Shown here: positions 1,603 through 8,629 of the stretch, in pieces
Position numbering within the stretch: the stretch's first letter is position 1
Layout: each line of letters starts with the position of its first letter
DNA from: Candidatus Dadabacteria bacterium
GTDB taxonomy: Bacteria > Desulfobacterota_D > UBA1144 > Nemesobacterales > CSP1-2
DNA length: 18,693 nt
Assembly: GCA_040289575.1 (NCBI GenBank)
Contig: PSLL01000041.1
Location: 1 to 18,693, forward strand
Direction: 5' to 3'
Notes under the pieces: model-generated
Database searches by the model: none
Told to the model about the DNA's origin: nothing
The model's input: only the letters and a program-made list of their open reading frames with translations
Program-made: the position numbers and the translations under genes

Positions 1603-1866
1603 ATGAATAAGGAGATAAAAACCAGAATAAAAAAGGTTTTAATTAATAAAATGCTTCAGGGGTTTAAACCGGAGGATATAGGAGACAATACCCCTCTGAT
1701 TGAGTTTGGAGTGGGGGTTGATTCTGTAGCCACATTAGAGCTAATAGTGGCGCTTGAAGAAGAGTTCCATATAAATATAGACGAAAGCGAAATCAACCAG
1801 GAATTCATCTCAACCATCAATGCCATTTCCGAATATGTATCCAAGCGCATGGAATCAGCCTCTTGA
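1603..1866 (+). CDS. Acyl carrier protein
   Basis: 87 aa, acidic, with phosphopantetheine site GVDS followed by ELIVALEEEF. Confidence 0.9.
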   Translation: MNKEIKTRIKKVLINKMLQGFKPEDIGDNTPLIEFGVGVDSVATLELIVALEEEFHINIDESEINQEFISTINAISEYVSKRMESAS

Positions 1867-2577
1867 TCCTTCTTTTCCCTTAAGGTATGACTCAACAGAA
1901 TTTATGAACTCCTTTCTTACACGCTCGCTTGCCTTGCGTATTGGATCGAGAACTACCTTTTCATAGACCTCCGATGCAGTAGACTCAAGCTTTGAATCGC
2001 CCGTTGTGCGGGCAAGTCTCAGTACGGCTACCGAGTTGTAGAATATAGCCCTAAAAAGCGCCCTCCTCGCATCATTTAATCTAAATTCCTCAAGCGCCCT
2101 CTGGGCCTCAAGAAGGTCATAGAATGCAACTCCACAGAATAACGTAAGGAGCCTTTTTGCCTCTTCTTGAGACATTCCCTCAATGATATAAACAAGTGGG
2201 GCTTCTATTATTGCTTCAAGTTCATTTTCCTTGCTTCCTATGATTCGGGCAAGCTGCCTTATCTTCTCATCGTCGGCGCGGCTTAAAAGGTCTCTTAGGG
2301 CATTCTGCACATATTCAAGCGCAAAGCTGTCCCGAATTTCATCGAGAGAAAGCCCCTGGGATTTGAGGGCTTTTATATGAGCCAGCCTATCGAGTGTAGA
2401 TTCAGGGTAATAGAGCCTAGCCGATTTGTCTCTACCATCTTTAGTCTTTCTAATCGTAGGCTTCGGAATAAAACCCAGCTTTGTATAAAATTTTATCGTC
2501 TTTTCGGGATCGGCTCCCAGATCAATCTTTCTTCTCTTCGCTTCTTTGATAATCTCTTCAATTGTCATGTCAACCAT
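1855..2577 (-). CDS. MerR-like HTH DNA-binding protein with a helical C-terminal domain of unknown function
   Basis: N-terminal pattern TIKFYTKLGFIPKP...RLYYPESTLDRLAHIKALKSQGLSLDEIR fits the MerR HTH/wing. The 3' end overlaps the ACP gene by 12 nt. Confidence 0.75.
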   Translation of the reverse strand: MVDMTIEEIIKEAKRRKIDLGADPEKTIKFYTKLGFIPKPTIRKTKDGRDKSARLYYPESTLDRLAHIKALKSQGLSLDEIRDSFALEYVQNALRDLLSRADDEKIRQLARIIGSKENELEAIIEAPLVYIIEGMSQEEAKRLLTLFCGVAFYDLLEAQRALEEFRLNDARRALFRAIFYNSVAVLRLARTTGDSKLESTASEVYEKVVLDPIRKASERVRKEFINSVESYLKGKEGSRG

Positions 2578-2583
2578 AGGAAG

Positions 2584-2613
2584 ATATTACGCTTTGAGAT
2601 ATAAGCTTGTCAA
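2584..2613 (-). promoter_or_regulatory. Sigma70-type promoter of the MerR-like gene
   Basis: Minus strand reads TTGACA (2613-2608), an 18-nt spacer, TAATAT (2589-2584), 6 nt, then ATG at 2577. Confidence 0.6.
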
Positions 2614-2748
2614 TCTGTATTTGATTATGTCAATTCCAAAATAAAAACATCAATTTATCAGCCATAGAGAACACAAAGTTGACCAAAAAAATAGAGACTA
2701 ATCAAGATTTATCAAGATAGAGATTTAATGAGACAATGTGTTTTATCA

Positions 2749-3561
2749 TTATTTTATCTCCTTATATCCTGAAAGATCAGATAGCTCTTCAAGCGATCTT
2801 ACTCCAGTATAAAAATTCCCTCTTATTTCCCATGTAGGATACACTTTTATACCCTTTTCATAACACAGAGCCAGATTTGCCCTCTCTCCACCCGGATCAC
2901 ATTCAACATATTTAATATACTTAAAAGCATCTCCAAAAAGCCCCTTTTGTTCCATACAGTGGTGGCACCAGTATGCGCCGTACATAGTGGCTCCTACCTC
3001 TGCGAGGTGTTTTGCAAGACCAACTCGCCATGTATCCTCTGAACCAGCTCTCAGGCCTTTTGATTGAAGAGATACGGAAACTAAAAGAACAGGCAAAACT
3101 AAGACTCCGCTTATTAAGGCAAACTTAAACGAACTTCTGGGCAACGGGTCGGGCTTTCCTATTATCAGTGTAATTAATATGCCGGTAATTATAAATGCCG
3201 AAGCCACGCAATATGGGCATATAGCCTTTATAACAAAAAGCTCAATGTATGTGAGATATGCAGAAAAGGCGAATCCCACTAAAGAAAGAAAATAGAGTAA
3301 AAGCCATTTAGCCCTACCATACGAAATAGATACAAGAGATAAAATAAGAATGGATAAATACCCGATAACACCGAAAACCGACACAGGAACTCCAAGGATT
3401 ATAGAATAGGGGCTTTCTCTCACAGTATCACATCCGGAGCCTACGGTACAAAATGCGGCCTGCGCCTTTGCATAATAGAGGTAAGTTAAATACCCAGAGA
3501 GTGCTATTCCTAAAGCCGAGAGGATTAGGATAATTAATCCAGGCGTCTTTGTGTTTTTCAT
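2749..3561 (-). CDS. VKOR (vitamin K epoxide reductase family) fused to a thioredoxin-like domain; disulfide bond formation
   Basis: VKOR loop cysteines CTVGSGC, active-site CPYC and TM helices; C-terminal YGAYWCHHC...YVECD...YPTW as in cyanobacterial/plant VKOR-Trx fusions. Confidence 0.9.
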   Translation of the reverse strand: MKNTKTPGLIILILSALGIALSGYLTYLYYAKAQAAFCTVGSGCDTVRESPYSIILGVPVSVFGVIGYLSILILSLVSISYGRAKWLLLYFLSLVGFAFSAYLTYIELFVIKAICPYCVASAFIITGILITLIIGKPDPLPRSSFKFALISGVLVLPVLLVSVSLQSKGLRAGSEDTWRVGLAKHLAEVGATMYGAYWCHHCMEQKGLFGDAFKYIKYVECDPGGERANLALCYEKGIKVYPTWEIRGNFYTGVRSLEELSDLSGYKEIK

Positions 3562-3595
3562 TCTAATACCATAAGAGTCAAATACACTTAGATGA

Positions 3596-4126
3596 CTACT
3601 CTACAACCCCACAAGCCACACGGTCTCCTTCGCCTCCGAGCGGTTGTGGATGATCGGAATAGTTATCTCCGTCTGCATGGATCATGAGTGAGTGACCCTT
3701 GAGGTCAGAAACTTTAAGGCGAGGGGCAAGCACCGGGAGCAGGGCACGACCATCTTGGTCGACATACAAGGCTCGCAGGTCTCCCATGTGCCCTTGTCCA
3801 TACGGCCCTTCGTGCTTACCGGTACCTTTGGGGTCATAATGCCCACCCGCCTCCAAACCGGGGACGGTCTTACCTTCCTTCTTTCCTGTGCCGCAATTCG
3901 CATTCCGGTGAACATGGAATCCGTGTGTCCCCCGTGTTAGCTCACTTAAGTTCGGTGTTAGAATTAGACCATAAGGGCTGTTGTATGCAGTAACTGTTCC
4001 AATCTCATTGCCGACCCCTTTCGCATTAATAAGGTGCATGTGCACAACCAGTTCTTCTCCATGAACATATCCCGCTGTAAATATTCCTATCAGTAAACAA
4101 ACGAGCTTAACGAGGTATCTTTTCAT
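3596..4126 (-). CDS. sodC: Periplasmic Cu/Zn superoxide dismutase
   Basis: Signal peptide; metal ligands in [24 protein letters not shown] and MIHA; disulfide Cys in NANC and RVACG. Confidence 0.95.
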
Positions 4127-4335: not shown

Positions 4336-5388
4336 TTATTCAATATGGCTTCTCTTTTCCTCCATCCCTGATTTTCCCATATTATGCCCAATATGAGAGA
4401 GGTGCCGAGCGGGCGTCTTGTGTAGAAGCAGTGCCGTGCATATGAGCACCAGTATTATAATGACCGATTCTGCCCAGACCTTGTGCATAAACCAGCGGGC
4501 GACATGAACCAACTCCGGCTTGTGCTGAAATGGATTGATATGAAGTGATTTCCGTCCGGACAAATGACGACCCGACAAATGCTGTAGGAGCAGGACACTG
4601 ATATACCGATTCGATGCACCTAATACAACAAGGGTAAGTAACAACATAACCTTGACAATAACCAATTGACCGTAGGGCGTCTCCCAAAGGGCATGGAGAC
4701 TTCTCACCTCAAGCCACGCATTATATGTTGCGGTAATTGCAACGATGCCCAGTGTAATACCAGCGAGTTTAGAGAACCTTCGAGCCATATCGGTAACTAC
4801 TGCTCCTCCCCGGTCGGGTTGCCTAATCGCTGTCGGGAGGGCGATTGTGGAAAGCACTATAAGACCACCTCCCCAGATTGAGCCTGACAAGAGATGCAGA
4901 CAGTCCATCAACTCGGGAAGCGCTAGGTCTCCCATATCGGCGGCGTGGCCCGATGCGCTTCGTGTTATGGCAATAACAACCCCGGCACCCAGCATAAAAA
5001 CAGGAATCGCACGAGAATCAAGGCGTTTTCTGCCAACCCACCATCCAATCCACAGCGCTACAAGTGCCGCAGGGCGGATAAGCCACAGATTCCCATAGTG
5101 GGTTCGGAGGATAACAACAGGCATCACGAAAAAGATCTCTGAGAGGGGACGGCCGCTCATCTCCATAACACGCATAAACAACTCGGCAACGCTGCTTATG
5201 GTCAACATCGCGACTGCAGCTACGATCAGATGCCAAAGGCGTGTGCGCAGGATCTCAGAAACAGAAGAATCCGAGACCCTACCTATAGGGGGAAGCACAT
5301 ACAAACGGCAGACTAAGGCTCCAATACAGATAAACAGTGCCAGAAGGTCAAATGCCGTGGGGACAATATGTAAGAACCCTTTTTCCAT
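4336..5388 (-). CDS. copD: Copper resistance/uptake inner-membrane protein, CopD family
   Basis: Multi-TM protein with SGHAA, LHLLSGSIWGGGL, RFS and TPYGQL motifs, next to copC. ATG 5388 follows an AAGGAG SD and is preferred to TTG 5394. Confidence 0.88.
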   Translation of the reverse strand: MEKGFLHIVPTAFDLLALFICIGALVCRLYVLPPIGRVSDSSVSEILRTRLWHLIVAAVAMLTISSVAELFMRVMEMSGRPLSEIFFVMPVVILRTHYGNLWLIRPAALVALWIGWWVGRKRLDSRAIPVFMLGAGVVIAITRSASGHAADMGDLALPELMDCLHLLSGSIWGGGLIVLSTIALPTAIRQPDRGGAVVTDMARRFSKLAGITLGIVAITATYNAWLEVRSLHALWETPYGQLVIVKVMLLLTLVVLGASNRYISVLLLQHLSGRHLSGRKSLHINPFQHKPELVHVARWFMHKVWAESVIIILVLICTALLLHKTPARHLSHIGHNMGKSGMEEKRSHIE

Positions 5389-5477
5389 ATCCAACTCCTT
5401 TTATAAGGGCGAACCTTAATAAACACGTTCCCCCTTTCTTCATGGGATGAGTCTGCCCATAAGTTATCCGACCCATT

Positions 5478-5846
5478 TCATTTAACCGTGAATGTGTAGT
5501 CTCCTTCAGTTCGATGTCCGTCTCGAGCGACAACGCTCCATATAACGCGGTAGGTACCAGGGGAAAGGGAAGGCAGACTTGCCTCAAGCATGGTCGGATT
5601 GGATTTATCTACGTGCCCATCCCCTTTGTCCACACGCTGACCGCCTTTATTCTCAACGCGAAGCGTGCTAAATTCAGGCTCCAGCTCACTATCAAACCAG
5701 ATGCGAACTTGAGTAGGAGCAACGTTAACCGTCGCTCCCACTTTTGGCTCAGAGTGATCGGGAAACGCGTGACCCCAGGCGGCCTGTGGCCACGCGTTGA
5801 AGAGCATAAAGCTGCAAAGTGCAATAACTACCCAAATCACTCGCAA
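5478..5846 (-). CDS. copC: Periplasmic copper-binding protein CopC
   Basis: Signal peptide then mature His1 (HAFPDHSEP); C-terminal WSVVARDGHRTEG; no Met-rich Cu(I) loop. Confidence 0.93.
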   Translation of the reverse strand: MRVIWVVIALCSFMLFNAWPQAAWGHAFPDHSEPKVGATVNVAPTQVRIWFDSELEPEFSTLRVENKGGQRVDKGDGHVDKSNPTMLEASLPSLSPGTYRVIWSVVARDGHRTEGDYTFTVK

Positions 5847-5860
5847 GATTCTGATCTCCT

Positions 5861-6754
5861 CTAATGAAAAATTGGTCTCCCCAAACTATTTGGGAACAGG
5901 TCATCTATAAAAAAGTGTACCAAAGCCAAGACTCCCACGTGATCACCTGTACGATCATTAACCGGGATTTGAGCCTCAATCCCAAGCTGTATATATTTAC
6001 CGAACCAGATGACACACGGGTTTACAAACCCCGTTGTATTGCCGCCGCTTCCGCGATTTAAGTCCGTCTCAAAAGGAAACTCAACGAGCAAGATCATTCG
6101 GTTTAATGGAGCCTTAAGACCAATATCTTTAACAAACGATTGAAGGTACTGGAGATTGTATTGTATAGTGAATCCATAGCTCAGTGTATCTGGGCTATCG
6201 CTACTTGTGGGAAAGTTGGGGCCAATGATTCCGGTAATGGCTATGGGCCTCAGGTATTTCACCGAATCCGGCAGATCACCGAATCCCTTGCCAAAAAAGA
6301 GTGCAGGCGAGATTGTAGTGAACTCATCGGCGCCCACAGAGGCATTTCCCGTATCGCCAATCTCCGCACTTAGCCCAACTGAGAGTATGGTTTCGTGGGG
6401 ATCATTTGTGAGGAACTGGTATTTTGCTCCCACTTCAAGGTTTCCAAATCCGTGTTGAGTCTTTTCCCCGTCCGGTTTCACGAACCAGAATGAATCGCCG
6501 ATTCCAATCCCGAAATGGGGGAAGATCCGTTTGGAGTAATCAAATGAAAACTTTGTGGTTTTCCCCTCAGGGTCGTGTATATAGTTGAATAGGAAACTGA
6601 GTTCATCAGAAATAAATGGGTCGTCAACCGAGAGCGTAGTAGGGAAAAACCGCTTGCCTGCAAACCCGTGTGCCCATGAGGGGATAGGCATTAACAGTAT
6701 GGCCAAAGCAAAAAAGGATGCAAAATATACAAGAACAGTTAATAGTCTTATCAT
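5861..6754 (-). CDS. Exported protein, probable outer-membrane beta-barrel associated with copC/copD
   Basis: Signal peptide ending SWA followed by His; amphipathic strands (GFGNLEVGAKYQF, LSYGFTIQY, QLGIEAQIPV); strong SD AGGAGG; 14 nt upstream of copC. Confidence 0.65.
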   Translation of the reverse strand: MIRLLTVLVYFASFFALAILLMPIPSWAHGFAGKRFFPTTLSVDDPFISDELSFLFNYIHDPEGKTTKFSFDYSKRIFPHFGIGIGDSFWFVKPDGEKTQHGFGNLEVGAKYQFLTNDPHETILSVGLSAEIGDTGNASVGADEFTTISPALFFGKGFGDLPDSVKYLRPIAITGIIGPNFPTSSDSPDTLSYGFTIQYNLQYLQSFVKDIGLKAPLNRMILLVEFPFETDLNRGSGGNTTGFVNPCVIWFGKYIQLGIEAQIPVNDRTGDHVGVLALVHFFIDDLFPNSLGRPIFH

Positions 6755-6755
6755 G

Positions 6756-6874
6756 GTTCTCCTCCTATTTTAGAGAAAGACTATAACAACCTTTTCTAGA
6801 AACGCCGCATGAAATCAGATTAGATACTTAGATATATGGACTACCTTAGGATTAAACCGAGATTGGAGGAGAAC
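6756..6874 (-). promoter_or_regulatory. SD/anti-SD long-range pairing between the leader-ORF RSPP codons and the SD of the OMP gene
   Basis: Perfect 10-bp inverted repeat: GTTCTCCTCC at 6756-6765 and GGAGGAGAAC at 6865-6874. Confidence 0.6.
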
Positions 6875-7169
6875 GGATTAATAATTGAGAGCCCCTATAA
6901 GACCCTATTAAACGGTTTTCATTTAGTGGTAAATATTCAACTATGTAATTGTTTGTTAAAAAATTAATTAAAGGTATAGAGACTGCGGATGAAGAGCTCT
7001 GAAGCCAATACGAGAGAAAGAGACAGGGTTTCTCAGATTTCTCTTTTTCAGACTCGCCTATATGATGAATTGAATGGGGTATAGACTCAATAATCAGAAT
7101 AAAGAAGATTATTGAGAGGGCAAATGAGAATATACGGGCTTGAGAATTTAGGCGTATTGCAATACATAT
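6852..7169 (-). CDS. Unannotated leader ORF, DUF2946/CruR/CutF-like putative ribosome-arrest peptide (non-canonical or frameshifted start)
   Basis: Manually translated stop-free frame of 105 codons: ICIAIRLNSQARIFSFALSIIFFILIIESIPHSIHHIGESEKEKSEKPCLFLSYWLQSSSSAVSIPLINFLTNNYIVEYLPLNENRLIGSYRGSQLLIRSPPISV*. It fills the degP-OMP gap and has no in-frame ATG, GTG or TTG. Confidence 0.7.
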   Translation of the reverse strand: MCIAIRLNSQARIFSFALSIIFFILIIESIPHSIHHIGESEKEKSEKPCLFLSYWLQSSSSAVSIPLINFLTNNYIVEYLPLNENRLIGSYRGSQLLIRSPPISV

Positions 7170-7177
7170 CTACCGCA

Positions 7178-8629
7178 CTAAAGCTTCATGGCAATATACA
7201 AAGTAACTTCCCCACGCCTTATGAGAAAAAGTGCGGTTTGTCCTTTTTTCAATGAACTTGCAGTGCTTTTATAATCCTCAGGGGTTGTGATCTTCTTTCT
7301 ATTTATCTCAAGTATTACGTCCCCGCTTTGGAATCCAGACTCATCGGCTAGACTTCCCGAATCCACTTTGGTTACTATAACGCCGCCTTCTTCAATCCCC
7401 AATCTGCCGGCAATCTCAGGTGTTAATTTCTCAACAGTAAGCCCCAATTTACCCTCTGAAATCTGCCCCTCTTCTGTATTTGAGCCTTTTGATGGGAGTG
7501 CCCCCAGTTTAACAGAGAAATCCTTTTCACTCCCGTCCCTCAACGCTTTAATCCTCACTTCTGTGCCCGGTCTGGTCATTGCAACTACCCTCGGAAGCTC
7601 TTCGGTATTCTCAATCTTGTGCCCGTTGAATTCCAAAATGATGTCTCCTCTTTTTATCCCTGCCTTATCCGCCGGACTGCCGCTTGATACATCACTTATG
7701 AGTGCACCTTTTACATCGGGCAGTTTCATTGACTCCGCAATCTCAGGGGTCAGTTCTTGAACCTGCACACCGAGCCATCCCCTTACAACCCTTCCGCCGC
7801 CTTTGAGCTGCTCTATTATATCCCTTGCGAGATTAATTGGTATTGCAAACCCTATTCCCTGTGCCCTCGCAAGTATTGCGCTTGTCACACCCACCACCTC
7901 TCCATTGAGATTAAAAAGAGGCCCGCCACTATTTCCGGGATTAATCGGGGCGTCTGTCTGTATATAGTCATCATAATCACCAAAGCCCAGAACCCTTCCC
8001 TTTGCACTAACTATACCGGCAGTAACTGTATGCCCAAGCCCAAATGGATTTCCTATAGCAATCACCCGGTCCCCGATCTGAAGCTTATCCGAGTCTCCCA
8101 GGGTCACCTTTGAGAGTCTTCTCTTAGGCTCTATCTTCAAGAGCGCGAGATCGGTTTTTGGGTCTGTTCCCACGACCTTGGTTTTGTATTTTTCCCCATC
8201 TTCGAGTACTACCTGAATGTCCTCCGCCTTTTCAACTACATGGTTATTCGTAATTATGTAGCCATCCTCACTTATAACGAATCCTGAACCGAGACCCTTT
8301 TGCCTAAACTCCCTTTGAGGAATGTCTCCAAGGAACCTCTTAAAGAACTCTTCAAAAGGGTCTTCCTCCCCACCGTATGGAGAAGGAAGTGAAAAGAATC
8401 CGGTATCATGGATTACACTGGTCGTGCTGATATTAACTACCGCGGGCTTCAGCCTCTTTACAAGCCCCGCAAAGGACGGAAGAGCAGGCGGCGATACCAC
8501 CACCTGTGGAGATTCTCCCTGCCCCTTGTTTTCATCCCTTTTTGCCTCTTCCTTTTTTTCCGATTTGGTGCAAGATACAAGAAGAATGATCACAAAGAGC
8601 AAAACCGCCAATTTTAAACCCCCTTTCAT
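7178..8629 (-). CDS. HtrA/DegP-DegQ family serine protease with two PDZ domains, probable lipoprotein
   Basis: GSGFVI, TNNHVV, TDLALLK and TDAPINPGNSGGPL motifs; lipobox LLVSC. Confidence 0.95.
   Translation of the reverse strand: MKGGLKLAVLLFVIILLVSCTKSEKKEEAKRDENKGQGESPQVVVSPPALPSFAGLVKRLKPAVVNISTTSVIHDTGFFSLPSPYGGEEDPFEEFFKRFLGDIPQREFRQKGLGSGFVISEDGYIITNNHVVEKAEDIQVVLEDGEKYKTKVVGTDPKTDLALLKIEPKRRLSKVTLGDSDKLQIGDRVIAIGNPFGLGHTVTAGIVSAKGRVLGFGDYDDYIQTDAPINPGNSGGPLFNLNGEVVGVTSAILARAQGIGFAIPINLARDIIEQLKGGGRVVRGWLGVQVQELTPEIAESMKLPDVKGALISDVSSGSPADKAGIKRGDIILEFNGHKIENTEELPRVVAMTRPGTEVRIKALRDGSEKDFSVKLGALPSKGSNTEEGQISEGKLGLTVEKLTPEIAGRLGIEEGGVIVTKVDSGSLADESGFQSGDVILEINRKKITTPEDYKSTASSLKKGQTALFLIRRGEVTLYIAMKL

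Follow-up and report, generated by a model that had tools for sequence, protein, structure and literature searches.

A putative RSPP arrest-peptide leader with stall codons predicted to pair with the ribosome-binding site of a copper-linked operon in an uncultured bacterial lineage

The 18,693-nucleotide (nt) stretch of DNA analysed here (the window; contig PSLL01000041.1 of assembly GCA_040289575.1, labelled Candidatus Dadabacteria bacterium) carries on its minus strand a degP-type protease gene followed by a 297-codon gene for an outer-membrane beta-barrel, copC and copD. Between the protease and barrel genes lies a short unannotated leader gene that ends a few codons after an Arg-Ser-Pro-Pro (RSPP) motif, and the codons of this motif are complementary to the barrel gene’s Shine–Dalgarno (SD) sequence. 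Here, we describe the leader and its family, follow the pairing across relatives, and propose that the leader probably acts in cis as a ribosome-arrest switch on the genes downstream. The parts of the leader gene and its upstream border are as follows.

7178–8629, minus strand: degP-type protease gene upstream of the leader; from its stop to the leader start there are 20 nt, or 56 nt once the missing stretch described below is counted, with no terminator-like site in between
7151–7154, minus strand: gap site, at which 36 nt are absent from the window and CGCC fits both flanks (contigs of runs X1, X2 and X3)
6852–7154, minus strand: leader coding sequence as present in the window, codons 2–101 (RLNSQARIF...IRSPPISV) plus the stop TAA at 6854–6852 (translation, conserved in relatives)
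7089–7133, minus strand: hydrophobic segment IFSFALSIIFFILII, residues 9–23, between Arg8 and Glu24 (translation, aligned across the family)
7062–7079, minus strand: His cluster PHSIHH, residues 27–32 (translation, alignment)
7023–7025, minus strand: Cys45 (TGT), the sole Cys of the window peptide (KPCLFLSYW), invariant in the family (alignment)
6864–6875, minus strand: arrest-motif codons CGT TCT CCT CCA for R95, S96, P97 and P98, with R, P and P invariant in the family

The original prediction placed a 105-codon frame, missed by the list of open reading frames (ORFs), in the gap between the degP-type and barrel genes. A minus-strand frame (7169–6852) is indeed open there from stop to stop over 105 sense codons, with a translation that starts ICIAIRLNSQARIFSFALSIIFFILIIESIPHSIHHIGESEKEKSEKPC and ends LLIRSPPISV* (in fuller reading ...RLNSQARIFSFALSIIFFILIIESIPHSIHHIGESEKEKSEKPCLFLSYW...GSQLLIRSPPISV*), and the ORF list skipped it because the window’s version of it is free of ATG, GTG and TTG codons. 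The real coding sequence is somewhat shorter, at 101 codons. We compared the contigs of four public runs over 6700–7300, of which one (X4) had no coverage of 7099–7182. The contigs of the other three (two studies; depths 25.5, 17.5 and 4.1) match the window apart from 32 additional letters that lie between 7154 and 7151; with the four letters shared by both flanks, the window is 36 nt shorter than these records. On the minus strand the added sequence terminates in an ATG immediately 5’ of CGC CTA AAT, and it also has the GAATTAGAAT-TG motif found 5’ of the ATG in two congeners (G001 and G002), both of which have ATG at the exact place of the window’s ATA (7157–7155). Because these contigs and congeners supply the ATG, the natural leader gene is ATG plus 100 codons (MRLNSQARIF...), and the 36-nt deletion of the window, at a 4-nt microhomology, stems from strain variation or from an artefact of assembly. 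Initiation at ATA or ATT, and a start by coupling to degP termination, were both dropped after the run contigs showed the ATG; an out-of-frame ATG at 7167 yields just a 26-codon frame.

The elements expected of the peptide (a transmembrane or signal stretch, PHSIHH, an acidic/basic linker, KPC and a terminal IRSPPISV) were all located where they had been described. The 15-residue hydrophobic segment is a putative signal peptide or signal anchor, PHSIHH aligns with an H-x-[IV]-H-H motif of several longer family members, and the acidic/basic linker is evident in the translation. Cys45, 49 residues ahead of Arg95, is the counterpart of the first Cys of a CxCxxC motif in other genera, and RSPP stands three residues from the stop. 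The base composition of the leader is skewed: its coding strand (6855–7154) has 23% C and 13% G, with 21–24% C and 6–10% G in 78-nt windows, next to 18% C and 29% G in degP and 23% C and 22% G in the barrel gene.

Conservation indicates that the frame is a real gene. Two congener frames at the same position are 82% and 77% identical to the window peptide, with no indels across 100 codons and several in the spacer that follows. Differences between the window and G002 lean to the third codon position (14, 13 and 28 at the three positions); at the codon level 24 changes are non-synonymous and 20 synonymous, an excess as expected for a fast-drifting leader. We then inspected 11 of 19 barrel-homologue loci in relatives, the remainder being second gene pieces or weak matches, and 10 of the 11 have an upstream frame ending in R-[SA]-P-P plus 3–7 residues, the exception being locus L007. 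A profile built from ten such frames retrieved 23 proteins at E≤1e-3 among 1.84 billion representatives, pointing to a small family. Its members are ~130 amino acids (aa) long and share a hydrophobic N-terminus, YSVQPYIPPS, CPSH, an acidic run, CxCxxC and RSPP, with H-x-x-H-H in some. A six-frame scan with the profile found the leader family in 37 of 120 genomes of the phylum, including 13/14 in the window’s family and 22/33 in a second family, in agreement with the earlier expectation that the frame would be conserved. In the congener G001, a partial second leader copy (L002:13-180, G001:C3:9924-10169; 66% identity over 56 residues, one in-frame TGA) lies ~1 kb upstream of the intact leader and resembles a tandem-leader remnant. 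Leader tails like those of the window’s closest relatives also occur in five loci with conflicting labels (L020, L021, L024, L030 and L067: Spirochaetia, Ignavibacteriales, Candidatus Dadabacteria, Thermodesulfobacteriota), and the public names of this uncultured lineage are unreliable.

Across 27 aligned leaders only four residues are invariant: Cys45, Arg95, Pro97 and Pro98. R-x-P-P, whose conservation the original prediction had made a test of the leader, is thus present in 27/27; Ser96 is almost invariant, the second motif position being mostly Ser, with Ala in two of the rows shown (L011 and P0015). The distance from the invariant Cys to Arg is nearly fixed, at 48 residues in 19 of the 27, 49 in six, 47 in one and 52 in one; counted from the last Cys of CxCxxC to RxPP it is 43–44 residues. 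The tail after RxPP measures 1–7 residues, and 3 in the window. Most other members have CxCxxC where the window has its single Cys. The window’s genus is a short variant that lacks a 29-residue segment containing CPSH and has the second and third Cys of CxCxxC substituted, while H-x-x-H-H is retained in all four genus-level sequences; the reduction of CxxC to one Cys plus a His cluster, remarked on earlier for this locus, is therefore seen in the window and its genus. Leaders of the form P-H-x-x-H-H ... C ... RxPP also precede orthologous barrels in L005, L071 and L087.

The second half of the locus is a predicted RNA structure that joins the leader’s last codons to the barrel gene, with these parts:

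6865–6874, minus strand: anti-SD arm GUUCUCCUCC (complementarity, folding)
6756–6765, minus strand: barrel-gene SD and spacer GGAGGAGAAC, forming the 3’ arm of a 10-bp helix (complementarity, folding)
6818–6858, minus strand: inner hairpin 1 of a three-way junction, holding the leader stop codon (folding)
6779–6816, minus strand: inner hairpin 2 of the three-way junction (folding)
6772–6787, minus strand: weaker back-up anti-SD (…GUCUUUCUCU…), the partner of 6765–6750 when the RSPP arm is covered (folding, −8.7 kcal/mol)

The complementarity claimed between the RSPP codons and the SD and spacer of the barrel gene is exact: GTTCTCCTCC (6874–6865), starting at base 2 of the Arg codon and ending at base 2 of the second Pro codon, matches GGAGGAGAAC (6765–6756) as its reverse complement without a mismatch, and the barrel ATG (6754–6752) lies 97 nt after the leader stop. 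In RNAfold predictions the ten pairs were in the minimum free energy structure of all stretches tried (136–461 nt), with mean pair probabilities of 0.99–0.999; three more pairs (6878–6876 with 6750–6752) extend the helix to the start codon. The helix closes a three-way junction over the 97-nt spacer. A weaker hairpin had been suggested near 6771–6798, which is only roughly right, the predicted inner hairpins being 6858–6818 and 6816–6779. When pairing was blocked at 6882–6852, the span of a stalled ribosome, the cost of opening the SD–AUG region fell from 8.5 to 5.1 kcal/mol, or ~200-fold at equilibrium. The fold with a ribosome footprint thus behaved as anticipated in that the SD became cheaper to open; it was only partly freed, a local hairpin taking the place of the helix.

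The match in the window is by itself just moderately unusual, and the weight of the pairing comes from its conservation. Since the spacers of the leader loci (90–401 nt) do not align, duplex, ensemble and synonymous-recoding tests were used in place of covariation counts. We assembled 47 non-redundant leader loci and kept 33 for the counts, dropping 13 GC-rich loci with unreliable start-codon picks and one (L125) with no SD; in each, the folded region began 30 nt 5’ of the Arg codon and extended 12 nt beyond the downstream start, and the stall footprint was taken as the 31 nt at −9 to +21 relative to that codon. In 29/33 loci the SD core pairs with this footprint at P≥0.5 (mean 0.86), and in 23/33 it does so with the RxPP codons themselves. 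As a control, 211 gene pairs of the window’s genome (same strand, spacer 60–300 nt, strong SD; 27 of 238 candidates were dropped for want of an SD motif) gave a mean of 0.11, with 22 at ≥0.5 and five at ≥0.9, and two of the five top-scoring controls turned out to be further RSPP leaders. By prediction, then, SD pairing at the stall site recurs in relatives, 29/33 against 22/211, as it should if the original proposal is sound. The use of arrest codons as the anti-SD, which had been singled out as unusual, is present and is common in the leader family instead of being unique to this locus.

Codon choice points the same way. Among synonymous recodings of R-S/A-P-P weighted by local codon usage, the native codons are among the top 5% for duplex stability in 13 of the 33 loci and among the top 20% in 18 (median percentile 0.18). 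The first Pro codon is CCT in 26/33 loci, against a mean share of 0.29 of Pro codons, and L005 also uses it there though CCT makes up 14% of its Pro codons. In L128 and L129 (genomes G096 and G095), where RAPP is coded GCU CCG CCU, the RxPP codons are not predicted to pair with the SD, and the footprint-zone probability is 1.00; the SD partner would be UUCUCCUCC, the F-S-S tail codons after the motif. The extended SD (GGAGGAGAA followed by C or U) recurs 5’ of unrelated downstream genes, barrels and TonB receptors alike. In the window’s genome it precedes only four ORFs, with its complement upstream only at the barrel gene. We also redid eight of the dropped DUF2946-type or GC-rich leaders that stand before barrel orthologues: one had no recognisable SD, and of the other seven, zone pairing was ≥0.45 in five and 0.00 in two.

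These observations lead us to favour, somewhat above even, a model in which the leader is a cis-acting ribosome-arrest switch that unmasks the SD of the downstream barrel gene, its control probably reaching the whole barrel-copC-copD operon. Stalling, the copper response and the ON/OFF polarity we infer by analogy with characterized leaders. On free mRNA, or where the leader is not translated, the RSPP codons (GUUCUCCUCC) would form the 10-bp helix with the barrel SD and spacer, and the operon would be OFF. A ribosome translating the leader would stall with the Pro97 codon CCU (6869–6867) in the P site and the Pro98 codon CCA (6866–6864) in the A site, the placement expected from the CruR toeprint and the ApdA and ApdP structures. 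It would then cover ~6882–6852, a span that takes in the complete anti-SD arm, the tail and stop codon and a portion of hairpin 1, leaving the SD opposed just by the weak local hairpin so that 30S subunits could load (partly ON). On release of the arrest the ribosome would terminate four codons later and leave, the helix would re-form and the operon would be OFF again. The release signal probably acts on the nascent chain outside the tunnel. The invariant Cys and the H-x-x-H-H cluster sit 50–70 residues behind the stall site (the His cluster 63–68 residues from the motif), and the fixed 48–49-residue spacing therefore puts the Cys, and the His cluster, just beyond the exit tunnel at arrest, where the CXXC of CruR is also located. 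By analogy with CruR, binding of metal (copper) to the nascent chain would relieve the arrest and turn copper uptake off.

Several observations weigh against this model or limit it. Ser-Pro-Pro codons are pyrimidine-rich and complement any strong SD almost for free; since the 216 nt preceding the SD region are likewise pyrimidine-rich, 32 of their 2000 dinucleotide-shuffled versions equalled the native duplex (−19.6 kcal/mol). Across loci, swapped SD partners are nearly as good as native ones (−12.33 versus −13.08 kcal/mol, p ~0.025), 10/33 relatives do not pair the SD with the RxPP codons, and the synonymous test is unremarkable in 20/33; the loci are moreover kin, so the counts overstate independence and none is a clean statistic. 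With the footprint blocked the SD is still partly paired (0.23–0.98 per base) with the back-up hairpin, so the switch would be graded, not clean. The leader itself has no evident SD or promoter in the congener comparison or in a scan of 6650–7500, which returned nothing useful on the minus strand 5’ of the leader and no intrinsic terminator. The window’s genus lacks the CxxC that CruR requires for its copper response, so that any copper sensing here would depend on one Cys and three His. RSPP, reported as arrest-inducing in random-library screens in E. coli, is reported as just partly permissive in ApdA and ApdP contexts (PMC12992588). RSPP leaders also precede non-metal genes in the same genome, so the module need not sense metal.

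The closest described counterparts are CruR and CutF, and these precedents, together with RAPP-type arrest in general, read as the original prediction had represented them. CruR (Bp2923) of Bordetella pertussis, a DUF2946 (PF11162) protein, is described as copper-repressed, with a CXXC at fixed spacing (45 ± 2) before RAPP and with Rho-dependent termination as its output, a C>G bubble serving as the Rho site (PMC9426467); toeprinting is reported to place its two Pro codons in the P and A sites (PMC12992588). From these accounts, CruR and the window leader are both small upstream ORFs (uORFs), exported or membrane-targeted (for the window leader putatively so), with a C-terminal R-x-P-P a few residues before the stop and a fixed distance from the Cys motif to RxPP (45 residues in CruR, 43–49 in the window family). 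Both head operons for a copper-linked outer-membrane transporter, and in both, for the window leader by inference, downstream expression depends on a Pro-Pro-stalled ribosome. The window leader differs in having RSPP, not RAPP, and a single Cys plus a His cluster, not CXXC; its predicted output is masking of an SD by arrest codons, in place of the Rho-dependent termination demonstrated for CruR. The lineages also differ, the window being low-GC and from an uncultured group and CruR occurring in Proteobacteria.

CutF of Rhodobacter capsulatus is described as a copper-dependent arrest leader with an SD-shielding stem-loop (PMC9973294; bioRxiv 10.1101/2025.02.05.636593). By those descriptions CutF and, by prediction, the window leader are co-translationally exported, sense metal through Cys and stall so as to melt a structure that shields the next SD. 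CutF has CxxxC, a poly-proline motif involving EF-P and an anti-SD in an intergenic stem-loop next to cutO, and switches a detoxifying oxidase ON with copper, whereas the anti-SD of the window leader is its arrest codons, 97 nt away and closing a three-way junction. ApdA, ApdP and the RQH family (PMC10987492, PMC10951233), as reported, share with it an N-terminal localisation signal (putative in the window leader), R-x-P-P near the stop, little other conservation and a patchy spread. RSPP is listed among RAPP-like motifs in the RAPP-type arrest-peptide literature, and in different phyla RAPP and RGPP uORFs are described ahead of metal genes, those for TonB receptors and CopC among them (PMC12992588). 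The published surveys, by their own accounts, targeted RAPP and RGPP, whereas the window motif is RSPP. Arrest peptides linked to Sec or YidC are described as monitoring machinery encoded downstream, which is not so for the window leader. In SecM-secA, MifM-yidC2 and VemP-secDF2 the stalled ribosome disrupts an SD-sequestering helix, as predicted here, with other arrest sequences and signals; in the window family it is the arrest codons (CCUCC) that give the anti-SD. The partner of the SD helix is, by prediction, within the stalled ribosome’s reach, as an SD-masking switch demands. A literature search found no description of RSPP copper leaders or of arrest codons as an anti-SD, which does not in itself establish that there is none.

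One suggested check of the frame was membership in DUF2946. The DUF2946 hidden Markov model (HMM) gave no match at E≤1 for the window peptide and none at E≤10 among 10 aligned leaders, so the leader is outside DUF2946 by HMM. Run on 18 further proteins, the model passed three proteobacterial leaders, and one RSPP-family member (P0018) scored 22.0 bits, just below the gathering score of 23.7. An hhalign comparison of 27 RSPP leaders with nine Burkholderiales RAPP/RGPP leaders found no link (probability 0.23%, E 0.27). Among the features of DUF2946-type leaders, the window leader lacks CXXC or CxxxC and has the C-terminal RxPP, the fixed Cys spacing and the metal-linked outer-membrane operon. 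The near-miss of P0018 and the shared architecture, spacing and genomic position leave room for a very distant homology to DUF2946. By analogy, the window leader most likely works like CruR and CutF, as an HMM-invisible variant of the described class and not a new kind of system.

Downstream of the leader, the operon is made up of:

5861–6754, minus strand: 297-aa outer-membrane beta-barrel, FapF/COG4313-like, with a signal peptide and an AHGFAGKRFFP N-terminus (predicted structure, alignment)
5478–5846, minus strand: CopC (PF04234, 3.8e-22)
4336–5394, minus strand: CopD (PF05425, 4.7e-15)

Neither the barrel protein, searched against Pfam and NCBIfam, nor the leader, searched against NCBIfam, had a match. 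The earlier assignment of an outer-membrane protein-copC-copD operon is borne out by the structure model of the barrel and by Pfam for the other two. The barrel model rests on a 75-sequence alignment (~12 strands; predicted local distance difference test (pLDDT) 90.2, predicted template modelling score (pTM) 0.81), a model from nine sequences having been discarded (pLDDT 49.5); its best structural matches are FapF (5o68_C, E 9e-9) and a COG4313 channel (4rl8_C, E 1e-6), then porins. On the same strand 3’ of copD lie genes for a Cu/Zn superoxide dismutase, a VKOR-family disulfide-bond protein and a MerR-family regulator (window 1855–4126), which fit an operon supplying copper to a periplasmic enzyme. 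The barrel family has at least 474 relatives in public genomes, mostly in Nitrospirota, Burkholderiales and Verrucomicrobiota, and no family annotation. Directly after its signal peptide A-H-G-x-x-G-K-R-F-F-P is invariant, and the mature protein may start with His, a possible metal ligand.

Among 15 scanned members of the leader family, the leader is followed by a gene for a TonB-dependent receptor (Plug) in three, by one for a sub-threshold Phenol_MetA_deg-like barrel in seven and by one without a match in five. Seen from the barrel side, 25 of the best 80 barrel-homologue loci have a frame ending in R-x-P-[PG] within 900 nt upstream, 19 of which were leader-like and six chance in our judgement; the other 55, five of them with little upstream sequence, have none in that range. 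Burkholderiales barrel orthologues are preceded by true DUF2946 proteins ending in RAPP or RGPP (38.9, 34.2 and 27.4 bits; cut-off 23.7); the leaders in front of this one barrel family are therefore of DUF2946 type in Proteobacteria and of RSPP type in the window’s phylum. In genome G003 the barrel orthologue (L007, C59) has no leader within 700 nt, and the leader (L107, C8) precedes a TonB-dependent receptor, so that there the leader behaves as a movable cassette.

A search of the window’s own genome (G000) for the C-terminal motif gave four further RSPP candidates whose downstream SDs are predicted to pair with the leader 3’ ends. One, on contig C47 (L130:316-687), has a hydrophobic N-terminus, FCSAC and, 44 residues on, RSPPVIL; the next SD is predicted to pair with its RxPP codons (P 1.00), and it is followed by genes for a 443-aa secreted unknown protein, ZnuA (PF01297, 4e-46) and an ABC ATPase. 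By sequence it is a second metal-type leader in the same genome. The other three, on C65 (L131:304-729), C20 (L132) and C28 (L133:304-675), are membrane-anchored ORFs ending in RSPP plus 3–4 residues, with zone probabilities of 0.99, 0.85 and 0.70 between the downstream SD and the ORF 3’ end, and precede non-metal genes: two related small unknown proteins and a sulfotransferase. Across the phylum the contexts thus include operons for copper or zinc-type uptake, genes for TonB receptors and, in this genome, those for a sulfotransferase and for unknown, cytoplasmic-looking proteins. We tentatively entertain the idea that the RSPP leader is a portable, self-contained cassette, its arrest codons (UCU CCU CC) being the anti-SD, that was recruited repeatedly before different genes; that the window’s genus swapped Cys sensing for a single-Cys/His sensor; and that the whole is an independent CruR-like invention, not a diverged DUF2946.

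Four other explanations of the locus were weighed. The strongest, in our view unlikely, keeps the arrest leader and makes its main output transcriptional: the stall would keep Rho off a C-rich, G-poor Rho utilization (rut) site, release would lead to termination before the barrel gene, and the SD helix would be secondary or additive. CruR, the best-studied functional homologue, works via Rho by the published account; the low G of the leader, unlike degP and the barrel gene, recalls the C>G bubble of CruR, and the absence of an intrinsic terminator from the 6650–7500 scan suits the idea. Yet a conserved long-range SD pairing and a synonymous bias would be superfluous for a Rho mechanism, and typical rut regions lack the structure predicted for the spacer.

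Slightly less likely again is the opposite polarity, as described for CutF, in which metal would prolong the arrest and copper would turn the operon ON, so that barrel-CopC-CopD would serve copper handling or tolerance. CutF is reported to use exactly such logic with an SD-shielding stem-loop, and CopC and CopD were first named as resistance proteins, as their Pfam and NCBIfam names recall; an outer-membrane channel with CopCD and a downstream Cu/Zn superoxide dismutase nevertheless reads more naturally as copper supply, and family members precede TonB-dependent receptors as CruR does, which is described as copper-repressed. We think it improbable that the leader monitors membrane insertion, export or another non-metal cue, the genus having lost the metal sensor and the switch being constitutive or export-dependent. 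The genus has lost CxxC, the same genome has membrane-anchored RSPP leaders before a sulfotransferase and small cytoplasmic-looking unknown proteins, and classical RAPP leaders monitor Sec or YidC; Cys45 is still invariant, however, H-x-x-H-H persists in all four genus-level sequences, and similar P-H-x-x-H-H...C...RxPP leaders precede orthologous barrels in L005, L071 and L087. The hydrophobic segment, moreover, is ~70 residues from the stall site, which, to judge from published force-profile work, would be too far for an insertion force to act at the moment of arrest. That the leader acts as a finished membrane or periplasmic protein, such as a copper-binding accessory, and that the complementarity is a by-product of Ser-Pro-Pro codons and a strong SD, would suit the modest single-sequence significance (32/2000 shuffles), the nearly equal pairing of swapped partners and His/Cys motifs that could bind metal in a mature protein, but is very improbable given just four invariant residues in a fast-drifting peptide with more non-synonymous than synonymous change between congeners, the fixed Cys-to-RxPP spacing, very short tails and synonymous codon bias, an anti-SD that, in loci without pairing at the RxPP codons, still lies in the stall footprint (again with the 29/33 versus 22/211 contrast), and CutF and CruR being reported as undetectable as stable proteins.

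The cis-acting arrest switch that we favour would add an unannotated gene and a testable control mechanism to the copper-uptake operon of an uncultured lineage, and would extend nascent-peptide metal switches of the CruR and CutF type beyond the Pfam family used to detect them. The locus also illustrates how a 36-nt assembly gap can conceal a gene from ORF callers, and it suggests a search rule: an R-x-P-P a few codons before a stop, with its codons pairing with the next SD. What we find most interesting is that arrest motif and anti-SD would be coded by the same bases, that the leader has spread like a cassette before different genes and that CxxC was lost in the genus. Ten bases that would serve both as arrest codons and as anti-SD would be a compact overlap of peptide and RNA constraints, and possibly a minimal synthetic switch.

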